Assembly: GCA_023140385.1 (NCBI GenBank)
Contig: JAGLLT010000039.1
Location: 34,381-98,380, forward strand
Source: Candidatus Omnitrophota bacterium
Lineage (GTDB): Bacteria; Omnitrophota; Gorgyraeia; JAGLLT01
Length of the DNA stretch: 64,000 nt
Direction of reading: 5' to 3'
The position numbers and the translations under genes were made by a program. Below are positions 2,235-58,581 of this stretch, one piece after another. A model generated the notes under the pieces. It worked only from the letters and a program-made list of their open reading frames with translations. It made no database searches and was not told the DNA's origin. The first letter of the stretch is position 1, and each line of letters opens with the position of its first letter.

Positions 2235-3958
2235 TGGCCGGAAAGCAGTTTAGAAGAAAACCGCTGGGCGAGATACTGTTAGACCAGGGTATTATATCCC
2301 AAAAGCACCTGGATGAGGCTCTGGATGAGCAAAAGAAGTCAGGAAAACTTTTAGGAAGGGTCCTTGTTGATTTAGGTTTTGTCAAAGAAAAAAGAATCTT
2401 AGAGGCCCTGGGTCTCCAGATAGGCATGAGAGTTACCGATCTGGAAAAGATGAAAATACCTGAAGAGATTATACAAGAAATTCCCGCTTCTTTGGCCCAG
2501 GTTTATAACGTTATTCCCGTGAAGCGGGAAGGGAATGTGTTGACGGTAGCTATCTCCGATCCGTTAAATATTAATGTCCTTGATGATTTGAGATTTGTAT
2601 TGAACTGTGAAGTGCAGGGAGCCATTGCCAGTGAAGATGTGATTAATGAAGCCATAGAAAAGTACTATGGGGGAAGCAAAAGCGATGAATCCTTAAGCGG
2701 CTTGGTTCGGGAGATAGAGGAAAACACCCCCGCGGTAATAACGTCAGAGGTAACGGAAACTCTGGATATAGCGGGCCTGAAGGAGCTGGCCTCTCAGGCG
2801 CCGGTGGTTAAGCTGGTTAATCTGGTTTTGCTGCAGGCGGTGAAGGATCAGGCCAGCGATATTCACTTTGAGCCTTTTGAAGATGAATTTAAGGTGAGAT
2901 ACAGGGTTGACGGAGTTTTATATGAGATAACCCATCCGCCGAAAAATTTGAGCCTGGCTATTACATCCAGAATTAAAGTAATGGCTAGTTTAGATGTAGC
3001 CGAGTCGAGGATGCCTCAGGATGGGCGCATTATGATGAGGGTTATGGGCAGAAGCATTGACTTGCGGGTTTCTACTTTGCCGACAATTTTCGGTGAGAGC
3101 GTAGTTATGAGAGTTTTAGACAGGAGTGTGGTAAGCTTGTCTCTGGATGAGATAGGATTGATGCCGGATCAAAAAGAAAAAATTATCACCCTAATACATA
3201 AACCCAACGGCATCATTTTATCTACGGGGCCTACCGGCTCCGGCAAAACAACTACCCTCTATTCGTGCCTGAGAAGCGTAAATAAAATAGAATTTAAAAT
3301 TATTACTACCGAAGATCCGGTAGAATATGATATCGCCGGCATTATACAGGTAAGCATTAAGCCCAAGATTAACTTGACATTTGCCACCTGCCTGAGACAT
3401 ATATTAAGGCAGGATCCGGATGTTATTATGGTAGGTGAAATTAGGGATAAGGAGACGGCCCAAATCAGTATTCAGGCCTCTTTGACGGGGCATCTGGTTT
3501 TTAGCACACTTCACACGAATGATGCCCCGAGTTCGGTGGCAAGGCTGATAGATATGGGCATTGAACCTTTTTTAATAACCTCCACCGTAGAGGCAATTAT
3601 TGCTCAGAGGTTAATACGAGTTCTTTGTCCCAAATGCAAAGAGCTTTATGTTCCTTCTGAATATGAGCTTTCTCAAATTGGCCTGGATCCGGGGAGGGTT
3701 GGAAGTAAGAAATTTTACCGGGCAAAAGGTTGCCGCGAGTGCAATAATATCGGATACAAAGGCCGCAGCGGGATATATGAGATACTGCTAATGAATGATA
3801 AAATAAGAGCCTTGATTATGGAAAAGTCACATAGCGCTCTTCTACGCAGAGCCGCGATAGAAGCCGGTATGCGCACATTAAGGGAAGACGGCCTGCTGAA
3901 AGTTTACGAGGGGTTGAGCAGCATTGAGGAGGTAGTCCGTGAAACCCAGGGTTATTAA
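2234..3958 (+). CDS. pilB: Full-length assembly ATPase PilB/GspE with N-terminal GspE_N (T2SSE_N) domain
   Basis: 574 aa. An N-terminal ~140-aa GspE_N-like domain is followed by SDIHFEP, Walker A STGPTGSGKTTT and GHLVFSTLHTND, then a C-terminal Cys4 zinc site. Confidence 0.85.
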   Translation: MAGKQFRRKPLGEILLDQGIISQKHLDEALDEQKKSGKLLGRVLVDLGFVKEKRILEALGLQIGMRVTDLEKMKIPEEIIQEIPASLAQVYNVIPVKREGNVLTVAISDPLNINVLDDLRFVLNCEVQGAIASEDVINEAIEKYYGGSKSDESLSGLVREIEENTPAVITSEVTETLDIAGLKELASQAPVVKLVNLVLLQAVKDQASDIHFEPFEDEFKVRYRVDGVLYEITHPPKNLSLAITSRIKVMASLDVAESRMPQDGRIMMRVMGRSIDLRVSTLPTIFGESVVMRVLDRSVVSLSLDEIGLMPDQKEKIITLIHKPNGIILSTGPTGSGKTTTLYSCLRSVNKIEFKIITTEDPVEYDIAGIIQVSIKPKINLTFATCLRHILRQDPDVIMVGEIRDKETAQISIQASLTGHLVFSTLHTNDAPSSVARLIDMGIEPFLITSTVEAIIAQRLIRVLCPKCKELYVPSEYELSQIGLDPGRVGSKKFYRAKGCRECNNIGYKGRSGIYEILLMNDKIRALIMEKSHSALLRRAAIEAGMRTLREDGLLKVYEGLSSIEEVVRETQGY

Positions 3959-3974
3959 AGAAAGGGTATAAAAT

Positions 3975-4135
3975 AACCAAGATATACCCAATGGGCACAA
4001 GCAAGAAACAATAACCAAATAATAACCAATGACCAAATTCGAATAACCAAACCAAGGCAGGAGCGAATGTTTGATGATTGGTTATTGAATATTGGTAATT
4101 GTTTGTATCTTGTATCTTGGTTATTGGTGATTTAA
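3975..4135. repeat. Intergenic array of ATAACCAA direct repeats (at least 5 copies) followed by inverted TTGGTTAT/GTATCTTGG copies, forming an imperfect long palindrome between pilB and pilC
   Basis: Read directly from the sequence. The left arm contains aataaccaa, ataaccaa and ccaagatatac. The right arm contains ttggttatt (x2) and gtatcttg (x2). Confidence 0.5.
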
Positions 4136-37918: not shown

Positions 37919-38506
37919 ATGATAAAAGAGTTGATTTTAGTTTTTGTCGCGGCCGTGCTTGTAAATAATTTTGTTTTAAAGTACTTTTTAGGCATATGCC
38001 CCTTTCTGGGTGTATCTGATAATCTGCACTCTGCCGTTAGTATGGGTTTTGCCACAACCTTTGTGATGAGCATTACCGCGCCGGTTGCCTGGTGCATCAA
38101 ACATTTTGTCCTTGATAAATTGGGCCTGCCCTTTCTTGAGTACGTTTGTTTTATAATAGTCATAGCTTCTCTGGTGCAGTTTGTGGAGATGGTTATAAAG
38201 AAATTTTATCCGGCTTTGCACCAGGCTATGGGTATTTATCTGCCGCTGATTACGACTAACTGCGCTATACTCTTTATGGCCCTGCAGTTGGTTTTACGCG
38301 AGTATTCATTATTAAGAAGTATAGTTTTTGGTTTTGGTTCAGGCTTAGGCTTTACACTGGCTATTACCATTATGGCGGGAATCAGGGAAGAGATAGAGTT
38401 TTGTGATGTGCCCCGCTGTCTTAAGGGGCCGGGTATTACCCTGATCATCGCGGGCCTGCTGGCCTTAATCTTTGTAGGTTTAGGCGGGTTAATTAAGGTT
38501 AATTAA
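37919..38506 (+). CDS. rnfA: Rnf complex subunit A
   Basis: LILVFVAAVLVNNFVLKYFLGICPFLGVS is a canonical RnfA N-terminus. Confidence 0.85.
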   Translation: MIKELILVFVAAVLVNNFVLKYFLGICPFLGVSDNLHSAVSMGFATTFVMSITAPVAWCIKHFVLDKLGLPFLEYVCFIIVIASLVQFVEMVIKKFYPALHQAMGIYLPLITTNCAILFMALQLVLREYSLLRSIVFGFGSGLGFTLAITIMAGIREEIEFCDVPRCLKGPGITLIIAGLLALIFVGLGGLIKVN

Positions 38507-49837: not shown

Positions 49838-49959
49838 GTGGGTAGGGCGAAACGCCTGAAAAGGTGAAGTTTGCCCTGGTAAAAGTATTAATTATGTCCT
49901 CTTTTGCGGGTTTAAGAAGGCATAGTAGATATAGACCAATGGGAAAGGAGGTGAAGAAG

Positions 49960-50373
49960 ATGAGAAAGGCAAAAGGTTTTACTCTTGTTGAGCTAATGAT
50001 TGTTATGGTCATTATAGGTATTTTACTTAGCTTACTGCTTCCAGGTGTATTTACCGCCCAAAAATCAGCTGTTGATACACAGACTGCCAGCAACCTGCGT
50101 CAGATAGGCATAGCTCTTTTTGCTTATGCTAAAGATAACAACGGGACTTTACCAAAATGCGCAGCAGATGCTCTAGACGATGTTCTGGTAACCGACTATC
50201 TGGATGATGCTAGCGTTTTTTTAAATGGAGATGGTATCGAAATGAATTATAAGCAAATCACCGGCCCTAACTTATACGCCCTGACTTCAGGTACTTGGCT
50301 AATGGCTGATGATGATACTAACGGAAGTAATCAGTGTGTTTGTGCTGATGGCCATGTGGCAGTAAGTAATTAG
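49960..50373 (+). CDS. Prepilin-type N-terminal domain protein with C-terminal ...ADGHV motif (DUF1559 / H-X9-DG-family-like)
   Basis: AAAGGAGGTG RBS. MRKAKG|FTLVELMIVMVIIGIL prepilin motif. The C-terminus is SNQCVCADGHVAVSN*. Confidence 0.55.
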   Translation: MRKAKGFTLVELMIVMVIIGILLSLLLPGVFTAQKSAVDTQTASNLRQIGIALFAYAKDNNGTLPKCAADALDDVLVTDYLDDASVFLNGDGIEMNYKQITGPNLYALTSGTWLMADDDTNGSNQCVCADGHVAVSN

Positions 50374-50408
50374 TAAGGTATTGGAGTGACGTGGTGATCT
50401 AAGATAAA

Positions 50409-50447
50409 AGAGCACTTAAGTGTTTTAAAATTAAGTGCTCTTTTATT
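50409..50447 (+). terminator. Intrinsic terminator (agagcacttaa / ttaagtgctct + tttatt)
   Basis: 11-bp perfect stem followed by a T-run. Confidence 0.7.
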
Positions 50448-50493
50448 AAGGGGGAGTAAGTTTAACCTTTAATTCAGATGAAAAGGTTGTAAG

Positions 50494-50904
50494 ATGTACT
50501 TATCAAAAAGGCGGGCGGGATTTACCTTAATTGAGCTGATGATTGTTATTACCATCATATCCATACTTATCGGGCTCATACTTACAGGCCTTTTTCAAGG
50601 GCAGGTACAGGCGGTTAAGATAAATGTTAGTAACAACTTAAGGCAGTGCGCTATAGGTATTTACGCCTATAGCAGAGACCATGCCGGCCAATGTCCGGGC
50701 AGTTGGGATGAGCTGACAGGCGGAAGTGCACCTTATCTGGATACCGTTAAGGTTACTAAAAATATTACCGGTGATGACTTTGTCCTTGACTGTGCCGGTG
50801 ATAATATGTATAAGATGGAATTAAGCGAGCCGTTAGCCAGTGATGTCAACGGAGCCAAACCAACCAATTTATACGTTTACGGTGACGGCCACGTAGGGCG
50901 GTAG
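50494..50904 (+). CDS. Prepilin-type N-terminal domain protein with C-terminal ...GDGHV motif, paralog
   Basis: KRRAG|FTLIELMIVITIISIL prepilin motif. The C-terminus is TNLYVYGDGHVGR*. Confidence 0.55.
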   Translation: MYLSKRRAGFTLIELMIVITIISILIGLILTGLFQGQVQAVKINVSNNLRQCAIGIYAYSRDHAGQCPGSWDELTGGSAPYLDTVKVTKNITGDDFVLDCAGDNMYKMELSEPLASDVNGAKPTNLYVYGDGHVGR

Positions 50905-50971
50905 TTGATTATTATACAGACTTTGAGAATTTTTGAATTCAAACTATGGCATAAAAAATGGTAGTTTATGA

Positions 50972-51014
50972 GAAGCTTTCCCTGCATCATAATCGGGAAA
51001 GCTTCGTTTTTTTG
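50972..51014 (+). terminator. Strong intrinsic terminator (gaagctttccc / gggaaagcttc + gttttttttg)
   Basis: 11-bp stem, 12-nt loop and a T-run. Confidence 0.75.
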
Positions 51015-51079
51015 CTTGACTTTTGTGCTTATAGTGATAGATTGTAAAAAAGTGTTGTATAAAAGTCTTTATAGACTTT

Positions 51080-51154
51080 GGCGGCGTAGCCAAGCGGTAA
51101 GGCAGTGGTCTGCAAAACCATTATTCAGCGGTTCGAGTCCGCTCGCCGCCTCCA
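51080..51154 (+). tRNA. tRNA-Cys (anticodon GCA), CCA-encoded
   Basis: Cloverleaf derived by hand. Acceptor stem ggcggcg/cgccgcc. Anticodon loop cuGCAaa. T-arm agcgg-ttcgagt-ccgct. Confidence 0.85.
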
Positions 51155-51462
51155 GCCGTCGCTCCTACGGAGCTATGGCTGGCAGGCCAGCCTACATTAA
51201 AGTTACAGCTGGCAGGCCCAGCCTGTATTGAAGCTATGATTGGCAGGTCAGTGTTTACGTTGAAGTTTTTTATCCGTTGCAATTGACATAGAAACAAAGG
51301 TGGGTTTGCGTTATATTTAACAGTAAAAGCGGGTTTAATTGTAGCTAGTAGTAAAAGCGGGTTTATCAGTTGAAGTTTATTTCTAAAGTAAAAGCAGGTT
51401 TATCTGTTATGGTTTATTTCTAAAGTAAAAGCGGGCCTGCCCGCCGTAGCTTTAGCGAAGGC
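51155..51462. repeat. tRNA-flanking modular repeats: a 38-nt post-tRNA block, ~31-nt decaying tandem repeats (ctggcaggccagcct...) and 37-nt tandem units beginning gtaaaagc
   Basis: The 38-mer gccgtcgctcctacggagctatggctggcaggccagcc is identical at 51155-51192 and 51550-51587. gtaaaagc occurs at 51351, 51388 and 51425 with 37-nt phase, and the tRNA begins one period later. Confidence 0.55.
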
Positions 51463-51549
51463 GGGCGAGTGGTGGAATGGCAGACACGTGGGACTTAAAA
51501 TCCCATGGCTGAATAAGCCGTGTGGGTTCGACTCCCACCTCGCCCACCA
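51463..51549 (+). tRNA. tRNA-Leu (anticodon TAA), long variable arm, CCA-encoded
   Basis: Acceptor stem gggcgag/ctcgccc. Anticodon loop cuUAAaa. Variable stem ggct/agcc. T-arm gtggg-ttcgact-cccac. Confidence 0.85.
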
Positions 51550-51732
51550 GCCGTCGCTCCTACGGAGCTATGGCTGGCAGGCCAGCCCGCACACCTTATG
51601 AACCTTTTTATCCGTTGAAGCTGGAAACAAAAAGGTGGGCTTAAGTTGTAGCTAACAGTAAAAGCAGGTTTATCTGTTATGGTTTATTTCTAAAGTAAAA
51701 GCGGGCCTGCCCGCCGTAGCTTTAGCGAAGGC
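51550..51732. repeat. Second copy of the tRNA-flanking module (38-nt post-tRNA block plus two 37-nt gtaaaagc units and a GC hairpin pre-tRNA block)
   Basis: 51640-51732 is nearly identical to 51378-51462. Confidence 0.55.
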
Positions 51733-51809
51733 GGGCGGTTGGCGCAGTTGGTTAGCGCGCCACGTTGACATCGTGGAGGTCACTGGTTCGAATCCAGTAC
51801 CGCCCACCA
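51733..51809 (+). tRNA. tRNA-Val (anticodon GAC), CCA-encoded
   Basis: Acceptor stem gggcggt/accgccc. Anticodon loop uuGACau. T-arm actgg-ttcgaat-ccagt. Confidence 0.85.
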
Positions 51810-51917
51810 CCCTACTACTCACAACATAATAGTTGTTCGAGTACAGTGCGCGGCACCGAACTAACTACGTTGAGTTTTGTAGTGGGTATTAACAGGGTTG
51901 GAATTTAAGGACTAATT

Positions 51918-53624
51918 ATGGATTTAAATGTACTAAGGCATAGCACTTCTCATATTCTGGCGCAGGCGGTGAAGAGCCTCTATCCGGGGGTTAAGTTGGG
52001 TATTGGGCCGTCTATTGAAAATGGGTTTTATTATGATTTTGATTTCAAAGAACCCTTGAGGCAGGATGACCTTTCTCGCGTTGAAGAGAAGATGAAGGAG
52101 ATTATAAAAAAGGAGTATAAATTCGAAAGGGAAGCCCTTTCTAAAGAGGAGGCCCTCAAGCTCTTTAAAGGCTTGAAGGAAGCCTATAAGCTGGAACTGA
52201 TAGAGGAACTTGGCGATGAGGAAATATCGGTCTATAAAAACGGAGACTTTGTTGATTTATGTAAAGGCCCGCACCTAGAGTCAACCGGCCAAATTAAACA
52301 TTTTAAACTTTTGAGCGTAGCCGGAGCTTACTGGAGAGGGAATGAGAAAAATGCTCAGCTTACCAGAATATACGGAACGGCCTTTGACACAAAGAGTGAG
52401 TTAAAAGAACATCTTAAAAGAGTTGAGGAGGCCAAAAAGCGGGATCACAGAAAAGGAGCCTCTTTAGGATATTTTAGTATGCATCAGGAGGTAGGGCCGG
52501 GCCTTGTTGTATATCATCCCAAGGGAGCTCTTTTAAGAAACATCATTGAAGATTATTTAAAAAAAGAGCATTTGGCGAGAGATTATCAAATGGTTTTAGG
52601 GCCGCATATTATGAAGTCCGACATCTGGAAGACATCAGGCCACTATGAGTTTTATCGGGAAAATATGTACTTTTTTGAGATAGACGGACAGGAGTACGCG
52701 GTTAAGCCTATGAACTGCCCCGCGCATATTCTGGTCTATGCCGCGAGGATTAGAAGCTACAATGAGCTACCGATAAGGTTTTTTGAGCTGGGCACAGTCT
52801 ACCGTCATGAAAAGTCAGGCGTCTTGCACGGGTTGATGAGGGCCAGAGGCTTTACTCAGGATGACTCTCATATCTTCTGCACCAAAGAACATCTGCGGGA
52901 TGAGATAACAGGTGTTATTGACTTTGTAAAAAGCACAATGAAGGACTTTGGCTTTAGCCAATATGAGTATGAGTTAAGCACCAGGCCTAAAGAGTATATT
53001 GGGAATTTAGAGGATTGGGAGGCGGCAGAAACGGCCCTGAAGAGCTCTCTTGACTCTGAAGGTGAAAAGTATGAAGTCAATGAAGGAGAGGGCGCTTTTT
53101 ACGGCCCTAAGATAGACATAAAAATAAAGGACTCACTCGGCAGGCCCTGGCAGTGCGCGACCATTCAGTGCGACTTTGCCCTGCCGGAGAGGTTTAATTT
53201 GGCTTACATTGGCAGCGACGGCAAAAAGTATCGGCCGGTAATGCTTCACAGAGTTATCTTGGGAAGCCTGGAGAGATTTATCGGAATTTTGCTTGAGCAC
53301 TATGACTTTGCCCTGCCGGTGTGGTTGGCGCCGGCGCAGGTGAGAATTTTAGCGGTTACCTCAAGAGCTGAAGATTACGCGCTAAGCTTAAAGGCGGAAC
53401 TCCGCGGCGGACTAAGGGTTGACGTGGACCCGCGCAATGAAACTCTGGGCAGCAAAATAAGAAGAGCTCAGGAGGAAAAGATTCCTTATATGTGTATCGT
53501 CGGTGATAAAGAAAAGGAGGCGCGCAAGGTATCGGTTCGAAAAAGAGGTAATGAACAGTTAGGAGTAATGACTGTCGAAGATTTTAAAAAAATAGTAATG
53601 GAAGACATTAGAAACAAGTCTTAA
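51918..53624 (+). CDS. thrS: Threonyl-tRNA synthetase (lacks the N-terminal TGS domain)
   Basis: It begins at the editing domain (RHSTSHILAQA). Class II motifs and a C-terminal anticodon-binding domain are present. An in-frame stop lies 4 codons upstream of the ATG. Confidence 0.9.
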   Translation: MDLNVLRHSTSHILAQAVKSLYPGVKLGIGPSIENGFYYDFDFKEPLRQDDLSRVEEKMKEIIKKEYKFEREALSKEEALKLFKGLKEAYKLELIEELGDEEISVYKNGDFVDLCKGPHLESTGQIKHFKLLSVAGAYWRGNEKNAQLTRIYGTAFDTKSELKEHLKRVEEAKKRDHRKGASLGYFSMHQEVGPGLVVYHPKGALLRNIIEDYLKKEHLARDYQMVLGPHIMKSDIWKTSGHYEFYRENMYFFEIDGQEYAVKPMNCPAHILVYAARIRSYNELPIRFFELGTVYRHEKSGVLHGLMRARGFTQDDSHIFCTKEHLRDEITGVIDFVKSTMKDFGFSQYEYELSTRPKEYIGNLEDWEAAETALKSSLDSEGEKYEVNEGEGAFYGPKIDIKIKDSLGRPWQCATIQCDFALPERFNLAYIGSDGKKYRPVMLHRVILGSLERFIGILLEHYDFALPVWLAPAQVRILAVTSRAEDYALSLKAELRGGLRVDVDPRNETLGSKIRRAQEEKIPYMCIVGDKEKEARKVSVRKRGNEQLGVMTVEDFKKIVMEDIRNKS

Positions 53625-58333: not shown

Positions 58334-58581
58334 TAGAGAAAGTCCAACCTGACCGCTATTGCAAAAATGCTTGCTTTTGAGCTTGGATTGTGATATATTT
58401 AGTGTAGATAATAATTTCCCTGCTATGTACGTGATGAGCAGATAGACTTGAGCCAACACAGTTTGCCCGGGAACCTAACTTCATACTGCCCGCGGGCGGA
58501 AATGAGAAGGTACCCACTTAGTAGACCGGGTTCAAGCCTATCACGCACGCACGGCATCCGCGGGGATTTCTTTTTAGGCCT

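Follow-up and report, generated by a model that had tools for sequence, protein, structure and literature searches.

This study concerns a 64,000-nt stretch of contig JAGLLT010000039.1 from a Candidatus Omnitrophota bacterium (hereafter the window) and, within it, a short array of tRNA genes whose spacers carry repeated hairpin modules. ARAGORN and Rfam concur on a tRNA-Cys(GCA) at 51080-51154 (67.6 bits), a tRNA-Leu(TAA) at 51463-51549 and a tRNA-Val(GAC) at 51733-51809, all on the plus strand and with encoded CCA, as a preliminary description of the sequence had proposed. The array sits between a pilin-like gene and the genes thrS-infC-rpmI-rplT-pheST, and its spacers measure 308 nt (Cys-Leu) and 183 nt (Leu-Val). 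The modules in these spacers are four copies of a palindromic unit that is associated with tRNA termini and recurs across bacterial phyla.

The unit, whose copies at the spacer ends of the window measure 36-41 nt, is 36-62 nt long overall and follows the consensus CCN-GCCTTCGCT-(P2)-AGCTAYGGC-N'GG-CAGG-CCNGC, where a boundary lies between CCN and GCCTTCGCT and where P2 is an optional variable hairpin with compensated changes between the conserved flanks GCCTTCGCT and AGCTAYGG. At a tRNA gene, stem P1 takes in three terminal bases of the tRNA itself, CCA where the unit adjoins a 3' end and GGG where it adjoins a 5' end. A covariance model (R1) was built from an alignment of 65 units. Copies 1 and 3 of the window are trailers on the plus strand, at 51152-51192 and 51547-51587 (59.6 bits each; E 2e-13 for copy 1). 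Both read CCA and then, across the end of the tRNA gene, GCCGTCGCT-CCTACGG-AGCTATGGCTGG-CAGG-CCAGCC; in P1 of copy 1 the tRNA's CCA together with GCC pairs with GGCTGG. The portion outside the tRNA is the 38-mer GCCGTCGCTCCTACGGAGCTATGGCTGGCAGGCCAGCC, of which the 64 kb contain exactly two copies, one at 51155-51192 and the other at 51550-51587 (0 of 100 shuffles matched). Copies 2 and 4 are leaders on the minus strand, at 51430-51465 and 51700-51735 (58.5 bits each; E 4e-13 for copy 2). Read on the plus strand they are GCGGGCCTG-CCCGCC-GTAGCT-TT-AGCGAA-GGC followed by GGG, and their P1 takes in this GGG, the first three bases of tRNA-Leu in copy 2 and of tRNA-Val in copy 4. The trailer units, after the CCA of tRNA-Cys and tRNA-Leu, are of a T/A form and the leader units of a G/C form. 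With the covariance model no unit was found 3' of tRNA-Val. A high-copy family in the window resembling repetitive extragenic palindromic (REP) elements was rejected, as neither a scan with up to three mismatches, nor short-word BLAST, nor the covariance model with filters off gave a further unit copy in the 64 kb. The best match away from the locus, at 38449-38488 on the minus strand (14 bits, E 0.096), has a mispaired P1 and is probably due to chance.

Each inter-tRNA spacer is a copy of one palindromic element that is bounded by units and has no open reading frame (ORF). The two units of an element are inverted, and each touches a tRNA gene with its GCCTTCGCT end. The spacers are homologous to each other end to end. 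In a global alignment their left 38 nt and right 81 nt are 100% identical, and the AT-rich interior, with indels, is about 73% identical (51256-51321, plus strand, TTTTTATCCGTTG ... AAAGGTGGG, aligned to 51595-51656 within the interior 51588-51656 of the second spacer, plus strand). The block of about 90 nt that had been noticed before both tRNA-Leu and tRNA-Val measures 86 nt, with 98% identity and an exact match over 81 nt. The left spacer end is built as GCCGTCGCT-CCTACGG-AGCTATGGCTGG-CAGG-CCAGCC and the right end as GCGGGC-CT-GCCCGCC-GTAGCT-TT-AGCGAAGGC, and the mutually exclusive hairpins described earlier are present. The ends are inverted repeats, with 21-nt arms that are 86% complementary. 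In predicted folds they pair in an interrupted helix of about 30 bp (about 32 positions) that closes the whole spacer, with the stem (((.(((((.....(((((((((((.((((((((.((. Fold energies are -99.8 kcal/mol for the first and -71.4 kcal/mol for the second spacer (z -3.6 and -4.8), and z is -6.1 for the whole region. Furthermore, inverted units stand on either side of tRNA-Leu and are able to pair with each other over about 30 bp; in an alternative predicted fold (-91.1 kcal/mol) this helix lengthens the acceptor stem of pre-tRNA-Leu.

The homology of the spacers over their full length, including the AT-rich interior, and the lack of any other copy in the 64 kb would also be expected if tRNA genes had recombined unequally and one spacer had merely been copied into the place of the other. 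Local copying did occur, but it leaves the origin of the copied unit unexplained, and the end units are common to more than 100 genomes of other phyla, often letter for letter and at the same tRNA position. A purely local event is therefore highly improbable. An artefact of assembly or binning at repetitive tRNA genes deserves hardly any credence. It could be suspected since nearly all matches to the unit come from metagenome-assembled genomes. However, 1,013 nt of this region recur without a difference in a second assembly, scaffold_11119 of ENA ERZ23498471, and in NCBI GCA_030638025.1, a check for which the preliminary description had called, and this speaks against an assembler artefact. 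Long-read contigs and closed chromosomes of 1-5 Mb (L097, L125, L030, L079) also contain units, the gene context is coherent, and the unit sequences covary.

Four relatives, whose threonyl-tRNA synthetases (ThrRS) are 69-72% identical, share the synteny Cys-Leu-Val-thrS. Their Cys-Leu spacers comprise 11-21 nt, with one exception of 797 nt that contains an ORF, and their Leu-Val spacers 12-116 nt. Since the relatives keep the array with short spacers, the tRNA genes are ancestral and only the spacers were expanded. The earlier proposal that tRNA genes had been amplified together with a promoter or processing cassette is thus not supported. Units are absent from the orthologous arrays of L003, L004 and L007, and in L006 the covariance model found only a weak unit, beginning at the CCA of tRNA-Leu.

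Decayed copies of the unit lie next to the intact ones. Behind tRNA-Cys, at 51193-51251 on the plus strand, the apex hairpin that makes up the outer part of the trailer unit is repeated in tandem in two 31-nt copies, both of them decaying. Tandem Repeats Finder, which was used for all repeats of this kind, reported them as period 31 with 2.7 copies at 51171-51251 (73% matches), in line with the 31-nt decaying repeats noted before. AT-rich tandem repeats of 28, 37 and 37 nt that start with AGTAAAAGC occupy 51322-51423 on the plus strand, and were reported as period 37 with 2.2 copies (51350-51432) and as period 28 with 2.0 copies (51311-51365). One decayed 37-nt copy in the second spacer (51657-51693, plus strand) is identical to 51387-51423. 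An alignment of the AT-rich 37-mers to AGTAAAA plus the intact leader unit shows conservation over the first 12 nt, and the remaining 25 comprise 8 identities, 12 transitions and 5 transversions (P ~0.005 compared to shuffles); among the changes are 15 C>T and 5 G>A. On the basis of this alignment and of the transition pattern the 37-mers are decayed tandem copies of AGTAAAA and the unit. The last unit starting with gtaaaagc, previously counted among the 37-nt units, is not a further copy of the AT-rich repeat but an intact GC-rich unit and the source of the decayed AT-rich copies. Hence, the tandem 37-nt repeats are real, but the phasing that had been proposed is not exact: each of the two tRNAs begins 38 nt, not 37, after the last gtaaaagc, and it seemed to follow one period after the last unit because the last period is the intact unit itself.

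Tandem unit copies were also found elsewhere, at the loci L026, L070, L077, L087, L108, L133, L147, L186 and L199. The intact state of the copies on the tRNA side, the decay of the distal ones and the identical tracts that extend from the junctions fit a renewal from the junction, which might proceed by break-induced conversion or reflect selection on the proximal copy. The C>T bias in the decay of 51322-51423 and 51657-51693 is on the plus strand, the non-template one for the tRNA operon. This bias suggests that cytosines were deaminated in DNA exposed as single strands or hairpins.

For the search beyond the window, a degenerate 21-nt core, AGCTAYGGCKGGCAGGCCMGC, was scanned against 185,579 species genomes (596 Gb), for which about 2 chance matches were calculated. 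The core pattern was found at no fewer than 118 loci in more than 10 phyla. These include Verrucomicrobiota, Acidobacteriota, Alpha-, Beta- and Gammaproteobacteria and more than 10 lineages of the Candidate Phyla Radiation (CPR), as well as Margulisiibacteriota, Dependentiae, Lentisphaerota, Kiritimatiellia, Planctomycetota, Nitrospirota and Bacteroidota. Copy 2 of the window is identical at 36 of 36 positions to the unit of a Berkelbacteria locus (L032). Among the matches listed, to which all further counts of tRNA positions, flank triplets and source genomes refer, 37 units are located on the 3' side of a tRNA gene on the same strand within 80 nt, 14 on the 5' side on the opposite strand, and none in the other two configurations. 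These counts imply that the GCCTTCGCT end always faces the tRNA. Among 2.9 million viral contigs there was a single match to the core pattern.

The unit also covaries with the tRNA terminus that it adjoins. The flank triplet changes with an internal base, CCA being accompanied by T in 46 cases and CCC by G in 30, with one exception. In the 65-unit alignment the corresponding P1 pair is A-U in 36 units, C-G in 26 and another combination in 3, and the pair in the apex hairpin is U-A in 33, G-C in 25 and different in 7. Altogether 96.5% of the cells in this alignment are paired, versus 87% in shuffles and 16-50% with a slid partner column. Variants of the unit in spacers of the protein-selected loci described below differ in the bases that follow CCA, and these covary with their partner (GCC/GGC, CGC/GCG, ACC/GGT, CCC/GGG and TCCTGC/GCAGGA), whereas CCA:TGG remains fixed. 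A perfect helix of at least 6 bp that starts from the first C of CCA was present in 65 of 106 unit-like trailers versus 6 of 71 other CCA-tRNAs. The units sit exactly at tRNA termini in many phyla, and the earlier suggestion of a satellite-like element that nucleates at tRNA ends comes close to these data; as a whole, the interpretation given in the preliminary description is partly supported.

Searches for a known family gave no explanation. Rfam, applied to the whole window at the gathering threshold and to the locus with E up to 10, returned only the tRNAs and a distant 6S RNA, and for 18 unit-bearing loci only tRNAs. In the searchable literature the words of the unit yielded nothing but unrelated primer matches. 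In one metagenome-assembled genome of the Margulisiibacteriota, units follow tRNA-Glu, tRNA-Ser, tRNA-Leu and tRNA-Tyr, three of them with an identical P2. Up to four unit-bearing contigs were found in one genome other than that of the window. At five Verrucomicrobiota tRNA-Cys loci (L009, L025, L043, L077, L108) the unit follows a near-identical 3' end of tRNA-Cys(GCA), and P2 differs among them (GGCCTGGCGGCC, CGTAGGGACG, GGCCTGCCGGCC, GGCCTGCTGGCC and CGTGAAGACACG), so that this hairpin is hypervariable at what is apparently the same site.

The base composition of P2 bears on the question whether the unit acts as DNA or as RNA. In 101 units P2 has 82 distinct sequences, with 93% Watson-Crick pairs, 2.4% G.T and 1.1% A.C. 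For an asymmetry of G.T versus A.C to discriminate between RNA and DNA the non-Watson-Crick pairs are too few to reveal a strand bias, and this scarcity in itself favours a DNA palindrome. A minimal unit, GCTAAAGC, has no P2 at all, and certain cassettes, such as that of L083, contain a single long palindrome without mismatches, made by the trailer unit together with its partner and centred on CAGG. By these sequence features the unit has the properties of a DNA palindrome that is recognised as a hairpin or cruciform and not those of a selected RNA helix, and its consequences in RNA would be secondary.

The RNA-level counterpart of this view is a host RNA-processing cassette, in which the duplex of about 30 bp between leader and trailer would be cut by an RNase III-type enzyme and separate the tRNAs in the manner of rRNA operons, or in which pairing of CCA would protect the encoded 3' end. 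It agrees with the long terminal helix predicted for each spacer and for pre-tRNA-Leu, with the covarying P1 that includes the tRNA's CCA or GGG, with apex hairpins that provide an alternative fold which would free the tRNA ends, and with the intact state of tRNA-proximal compared to decayed distal copies. Unrelated AT-rich trailers after tRNA-Leu and tRNA-Val in L007 likewise seem, judged by eye, to pair CCA with UGG. However, the arrays of the relatives work with spacers of 11-21 nt and without units, and solo units without a pairing partner are common. The unit occurs in both transcription orientations, whereby the RNA loops differ (UUC/UAC versus GUA/GAA), many G/C-form units are not beside a tRNA, and a P2 with 93% Watson-Crick pairs and very few G.U is atypical for selected RNA helices. 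A duplex of at least 20 bp flanking the mature RNA, by which an RNase III stalk is recognised, exists in prediction for pre-tRNA-Leu and both spacers, and it is not conserved at the loci of the relatives (none in L003, L004 and L007, a weak trailer in L006). Since a processing cassette would also leave a tight link to a nuclease gene, described below, unexplained, we consider it quite unlikely.

Even less can be said for a self-cleaving ribozyme that matures tRNA 3' ends. Theta ribozymes, which resemble the ribozyme of hepatitis delta virus (HDV), adjoin tRNA 3' ends in gut phages and are documented structured RNAs at that position (PMC10879173), and the trailer units, too, begin exactly after the CCA at the tRNA 3' end. 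In contrast to such ribozymes, the units gave no match to HDV-like or other families with E up to 10 (50900-51950) or, at 18 loci, at the gathering threshold. They form simple nested or alternative hairpins without a double pseudoknot, have mirror antisense copies upstream of tRNA 5' ends (14 versus 37 trailer cases), exist in a minimal form without P2, show the base-pair composition of a DNA palindrome, and are chromosomal. A ribozyme is thus very unlikely.

A protein partner of the unit was indicated by about ten loci from Verrucomicrobia and Proteobacteria, in which the unit is followed by an 80-aa ORF starting with MHYVY. This ORF consists of a GIY-YIG catalytic domain alone (PF01541, E 1e-12 to 1e-16). 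A hidden Markov model (HMM) of these ORFs detected the gene or pseudogenes in 20 of the 118 pattern-selected loci, among them pseudogenised copies in L045, L063 and L075. In the reverse test loci were picked from JGI metagenomes by protein similarity alone; 564 of 600 candidates were confirmed and 80 kept. A same-strand tRNA was located upstream of the GIY-YIG ORF in 45 of the 62 loci (73%) with enough upstream DNA, and mostly ended 90-150 nt before the start codon. The covariance model detected a unit within 320 nt upstream of the ORF in 54 of 70 protein-selected loci (77%), and 83 of its 96 matches fell into the 10.6% of the sequence just upstream of the ORF. Where both senses were present, the trailer-sense unit preceded the leader-sense unit in 22 of 23 loci. 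This is the order in the spacers of the window, with the next tRNA replacing the ORF. The unit family is tightly linked to a family of small GIY-YIG genes parked behind tRNA genes.

This GIY-YIG family comprises at least 7,972 clusters at 90% identity with E <= 1e-10. The nearest solved structures to the 80-aa protein are UPF0213 BH0048 (E 5e-6) and SLX1, and NCBIfam contained no match to it. No homologue of the linked protein was found by tblastn in 72,556 PLSDB plasmids, and keyword searches of the literature for GIY-YIG genes beside tRNAs returned nothing on bacterial chromosomes. In the spacers of the window the six-frame scores for a remnant of the GIY-YIG ORF were all negative.

Ssn nucleases with their SRM/NTS repeats are the closest known system, and by analogy the unit family may represent a tRNA-targeted variant of it. 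Ssn proteins (cd10448) measure about 94 aa and consist of a single GIY-YIG domain. They bind NTS/SRM hairpin repeats only as single-stranded DNA (ssDNA), and their cut is placed a few nucleotides upstream (Chenal et al. 2025, PMC11893778). The arrangement NTS-ssnA-NTS has been likened to an insertion sequence, an analogy to REP elements and REP-associated tyrosine transposases (RAYTs) was drawn by the same authors, and NTS-gene-NTS layouts lower transformation in Neisseria (PMC11893778). tRNA is nowhere mentioned in that paper (PMC11893778). Both systems tie a tiny single-domain GIY-YIG protein (80 aa here, 94 aa in SsnA) to a hairpin repeat of 20-50 nt that has an orientation and is bordered by conserved flanks outside the palindrome; most copies of the repeat have no ORF. 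They share the layout C(G/T)TC - hairpin - AGCTAC, in which AGCTAC fits the SRM 3' term RNCYNB and CGTCGC of the window fits HGTCWY at 5 of 6 positions. An Ssn-type cut site would, by this analogy, coincide with the junction of tRNA and unit. In contrast to NTS, the unit has an extra outer stem formed by flank pairing and an apex hairpin, and its hairpin is hypervariable, whereas NTS recognition is sequence-specific. Units are furthermore located upstream of the gene, in the gap between tRNA and ORF, rather than on both sides of it, they occur strictly at tRNA gene termini, and their copy number is low here.

The published SRM pattern, HGTCWYN(0-2)YYVSBRHN(0-5)WNVSBRGN(0-2)RNCYNB, matched the NTS positive control and gave no match in the 64-kb window and none within 500 nt in 62 GIY-YIG loci. 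In 821 kb of unit-bearing loci it had 9 matches, one of them near a unit. A canonical motif of the NTS/SRM type that matches this pattern (TGTCATCCCCGCGAAAGCGGGGATCCAG; L029, 905-932) is separated by 64 nt from a G/C-form unit in intergenic DNA of a metagenome-assembled genome of the Desulfobacteraceae, which indicates that the two repeat classes can cluster.

Two groups of extragenic repeats offer further comparisons. REP elements and the bacterial interspersed mosaic elements composed of them are extragenic palindromes that occur solo, as inverted pairs and in tandem clusters and are associated with RAYTs, i.e. Y1 transposases resembling those of IS200/IS605. The unit family shares with them this pattern of occurrence, the link to a single-copy nuclease gene and presumably the recognition of a DNA hairpin, possibly with a target defined by adjacent base pairing. 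The enzyme here is a GIY-YIG and not an HUH/Y1 protein, and REPs are species-specific and not tied to tRNA ends, whereas the unit is near-identical across phyla. The Correia/NEMIS elements of Neisseria are miniature inverted-repeat transposable elements (MITEs) with transcripts that fold into hairpins cleaved by RNase III. Similarly, the spacers of the window are non-coding elements of 183-308 nt with terminal inverted repeats, would be co-transcribed with neighbouring genes, and have a long predicted terminal duplex. In contrast to MITEs, no autonomous transposase relative was found, as the ORF-bearing relatives of the element encode the GIY-YIG nuclease; a clear target-site duplication is missing as well, only two copies are visible, and the ends are tRNA termini.

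GIY-YIG genes among tRNA genes have a precedent in phage T4, where the homing endonuclease SegB is encoded within the tRNA gene cluster (PMC2330249; PMC13096335). SegB drives the preferential inheritance or amplification of the tRNA region. It is a multi-domain phage enzyme that acts on double-stranded DNA and has no hairpin repeats, unlike the catalytic domain alone that is encoded on chromosomes here, with no such gene in the window.

Taken together, we propose that the units are the cognate DNA hairpins of the linked nuclease, as NTS/SRM are for Ssn or REPs for RAYTs. In single-stranded or extruded DNA the hairpin would be bound by the nuclease, which would make its cut a few bases 5' of the conserved C(T/G)TC, i.e. 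at the junction of tRNA and unit. Through break repair, gene conversion and slippage, units could then reach further tRNA ends and multiply into tandem arrays, in which the tRNA-proximal copy would be kept or renewed and distal copies would decay. The copies in the window, which have no ORF, would be non-autonomous. Co-transcribed with the tRNAs from a single promoter upstream of tRNA-Cys, the spacer RNA would form a hairpin closed by the stem of about 30 bp. Host RNases would presumably remove this stem by an RNase III-type cut followed by RNase P and 3' trimming, and the apex hairpins GGCUGG-CAGG-CCAGCC and GCGGGC-CU-GCCCGC might prevent the unit from trapping the tRNA ends. The role of the units as cognate hairpins of the nuclease, their cleavage and mobility, nuclease-driven spread and renewal, and removal of spacer RNA via the terminal duplex are those parts of the scheme that we infer. 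For a nuclease-linked hairpin element as the overall explanation we estimate a probability of about 60%.

Several observations weigh against this explanation. With the HMM, in a search that covered the window, no GIY-YIG gene was found in the 64 kb. These 64 kb contain just four units, clustered at a single locus, whereas NTS or REP elements are dispersed in hundreds of copies, and the units do not match the SRM pattern. Leader units adjacent to a tRNA are known only from tRNA-Gly of CPR bacteria and from tRNA-Leu and tRNA-Val here. To our knowledge GIY-YIG enzymes hydrolyse DNA, and we know of no strand transfer by them. A target-site duplication of the whole spacer was not seen, since CCA on the left and GGG on the right make no direct repeat; within the unit, CCNGCC stands on both sides of the core and is also the arm of the apex hairpin. 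As there is neither a known strand transfer nor a target-site duplication, how the units are copied is a matter of conjecture. Units that agree letter for letter between phyla, and the stem formed with CCA or GGG, could, moreover, mean a function for the host or at the RNA level. Finally, almost all matches are from metagenome-assembled genomes.

From isolates there were two matches only, both in Salinisphaera orenii (L095, L111). With neither the GCCTTCGCT word nor a nearby tRNA, these two have the look of chance matches. It may be that the element is found mostly in uncultured lineages.

A domesticated use of the same enzymology would be the control of recombination, with units beside the universally conserved tRNA genes acting as sites of an Ssn-like ssDNA nuclease, so that ssDNA entering by transformation or conjugation and recombining via tRNA homology is cut. 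Ssn together with NTS lowers the integration of NTS-bearing DNA (PMC11893778). Mirror units on both sides of a tRNA, as around tRNA-Leu here and tRNA-Gly in L023, would suit such a role, and so would the chromosomal location of the units, with 1 match in 2.9 million viral contigs and no GIY-YIG homologue in 72,556 plasmids. On the other hand, this genome gave no sign of competence or of the nuclease (the GIY-YIG search comprised the 64-kb window only), the units are sporadic among close relatives, and tandem amplification, decay and GIY-YIG pseudogenes resemble selfish turnover more than a function that the host maintains. Recombination control is thus unlikely, though worth considering.

The nuclease-linked hairpin element can be put in a more specific form, namely that of a previously undescribed cross-phylum selfish element specific for tRNA termini, whose target is set by base pairing with CCA or GGG and which is propagated by the 80-aa GIY-YIG nuclease parked behind tRNA genes and expressed by read-through. 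This version is tentative, and we rate it somewhat below even odds. If it is correct, Ssn/SRM would have a sister system whose landing site is universal and conserved, and this site would explain near-identical 36-nt units in Omnitrophota and CPR bacteria.

What began as a local repeat leads to a testable general rule, that of a 36-41-nt DNA hairpin capping tRNA gene ends in many phyla, including the little-studied Omnitrophota, CPR, Margulisiibacteriota and Dependentiae. The coupled nuclease gene is among the smallest known. The Ssn/SRM paradigm, which dates from 2025 and whose biology outside Neisseria is obscure, would come to include another motif class, one whose genomic target is clear, which provides a handle on the purpose of nuclease-repeat pairs. 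Pairing with CCA or GGG hints at a programmable, base-pair-defined choice of sites by a nuclease of about 9 kDa and may be of interest for ssDNA tools. Annotators gain a model for a recurrent intergenic element, and the spacers are a natural experiment on the processing of tRNA precursors that bear 30-bp hairpins.

The array of the window is preceded by a sigma-70-type promoter on the plus strand at 51016-51043 (TTGACT-16-TGnTAGATT, a TG-extended TAGATT), identified in a promoter scan. Its layout, TTGACT..TA(A/G)ATT, is also found 5' of tRNA-Cys in the relatives L003, L004 and L007, and in the window it comes after the terminator-like hairpin of the upstream pilin-like gene. A role of the units as promoters or terminators was rejected, the sole convincing promoter being the conserved one upstream of tRNA-Cys; by score the unit hairpins are terminator-like on the minus strand only. 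The 7-bp inverted repeat aaagtct-ttat-agacttt, which had been reported to adjoin tRNA-Cys, was read at 51062-51079 on the plus strand. It abuts the 5' end of tRNA-Cys, stands outside the repeat family, and has no counterpart in the leaders of the relatives.

In two relatives free-standing ORFs accompany the orthologous array. L004 carries a LAGLIDADG-like ORF between tRNA-Cys and tRNA-Leu (3045-3725), and in L006 ORFs are located in or beside the Cys-Leu-Val array at 1685-2305 and 2685-3284. The LAGLIDADG-like ORFs of the relatives match PF14528 with E 1e-9 and 4e-9, and L006 also has a helix-turn-helix-like ORF of 199 aa after tRNA-Val. In this clade, selfish genes of the endonuclease type seem to settle repeatedly at the tRNA array. 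L007 has the same trailer of about 50 nt behind both tRNA-Leu and tRNA-Val (3794-3852 and 3930-3980). Judged by eye, it opens with the hairpin CCAUGUUUUG-UGAAA-CAAAAUGUGG, in which CCA of the tRNA pairs with UGG, and continues with unit-like words (TTCGCC..GGCAGACC). Its architecture is the same as that of the unit and its sequence mostly different, with a weak match to the covariance model (E 1.4).

Downstream of the array, thrS (51918-53624, plus strand), the first gene of thrS-infC-rpmI-rplT-pheST, served as synteny anchor. It encodes a threonine-tRNA ligase of 568 aa, a length that is constant across the clade. Only the domains tRNA_SAD, tRNA-synt_2b and HGTP_anticodon are on record for it, and the enzyme seems to lack the usual N-terminal domains of ThrRS. 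Directly upstream of the array, at 49864-50904, are two neighbouring small ORFs with an N-terminal methylation motif of the prepilin type, and this pair (or a trio) is kept in the relatives. A 6S (SsrS) RNA gene is located at 58414-58570 on the plus strand (83 bits with Rfam RF00013). All called genes over about 42-64 kb, the part for which gene calls were examined, are on the plus strand, and the GC skew is positive throughout the window, ranging from 0.08 to 0.24 in each 2-kb bin.

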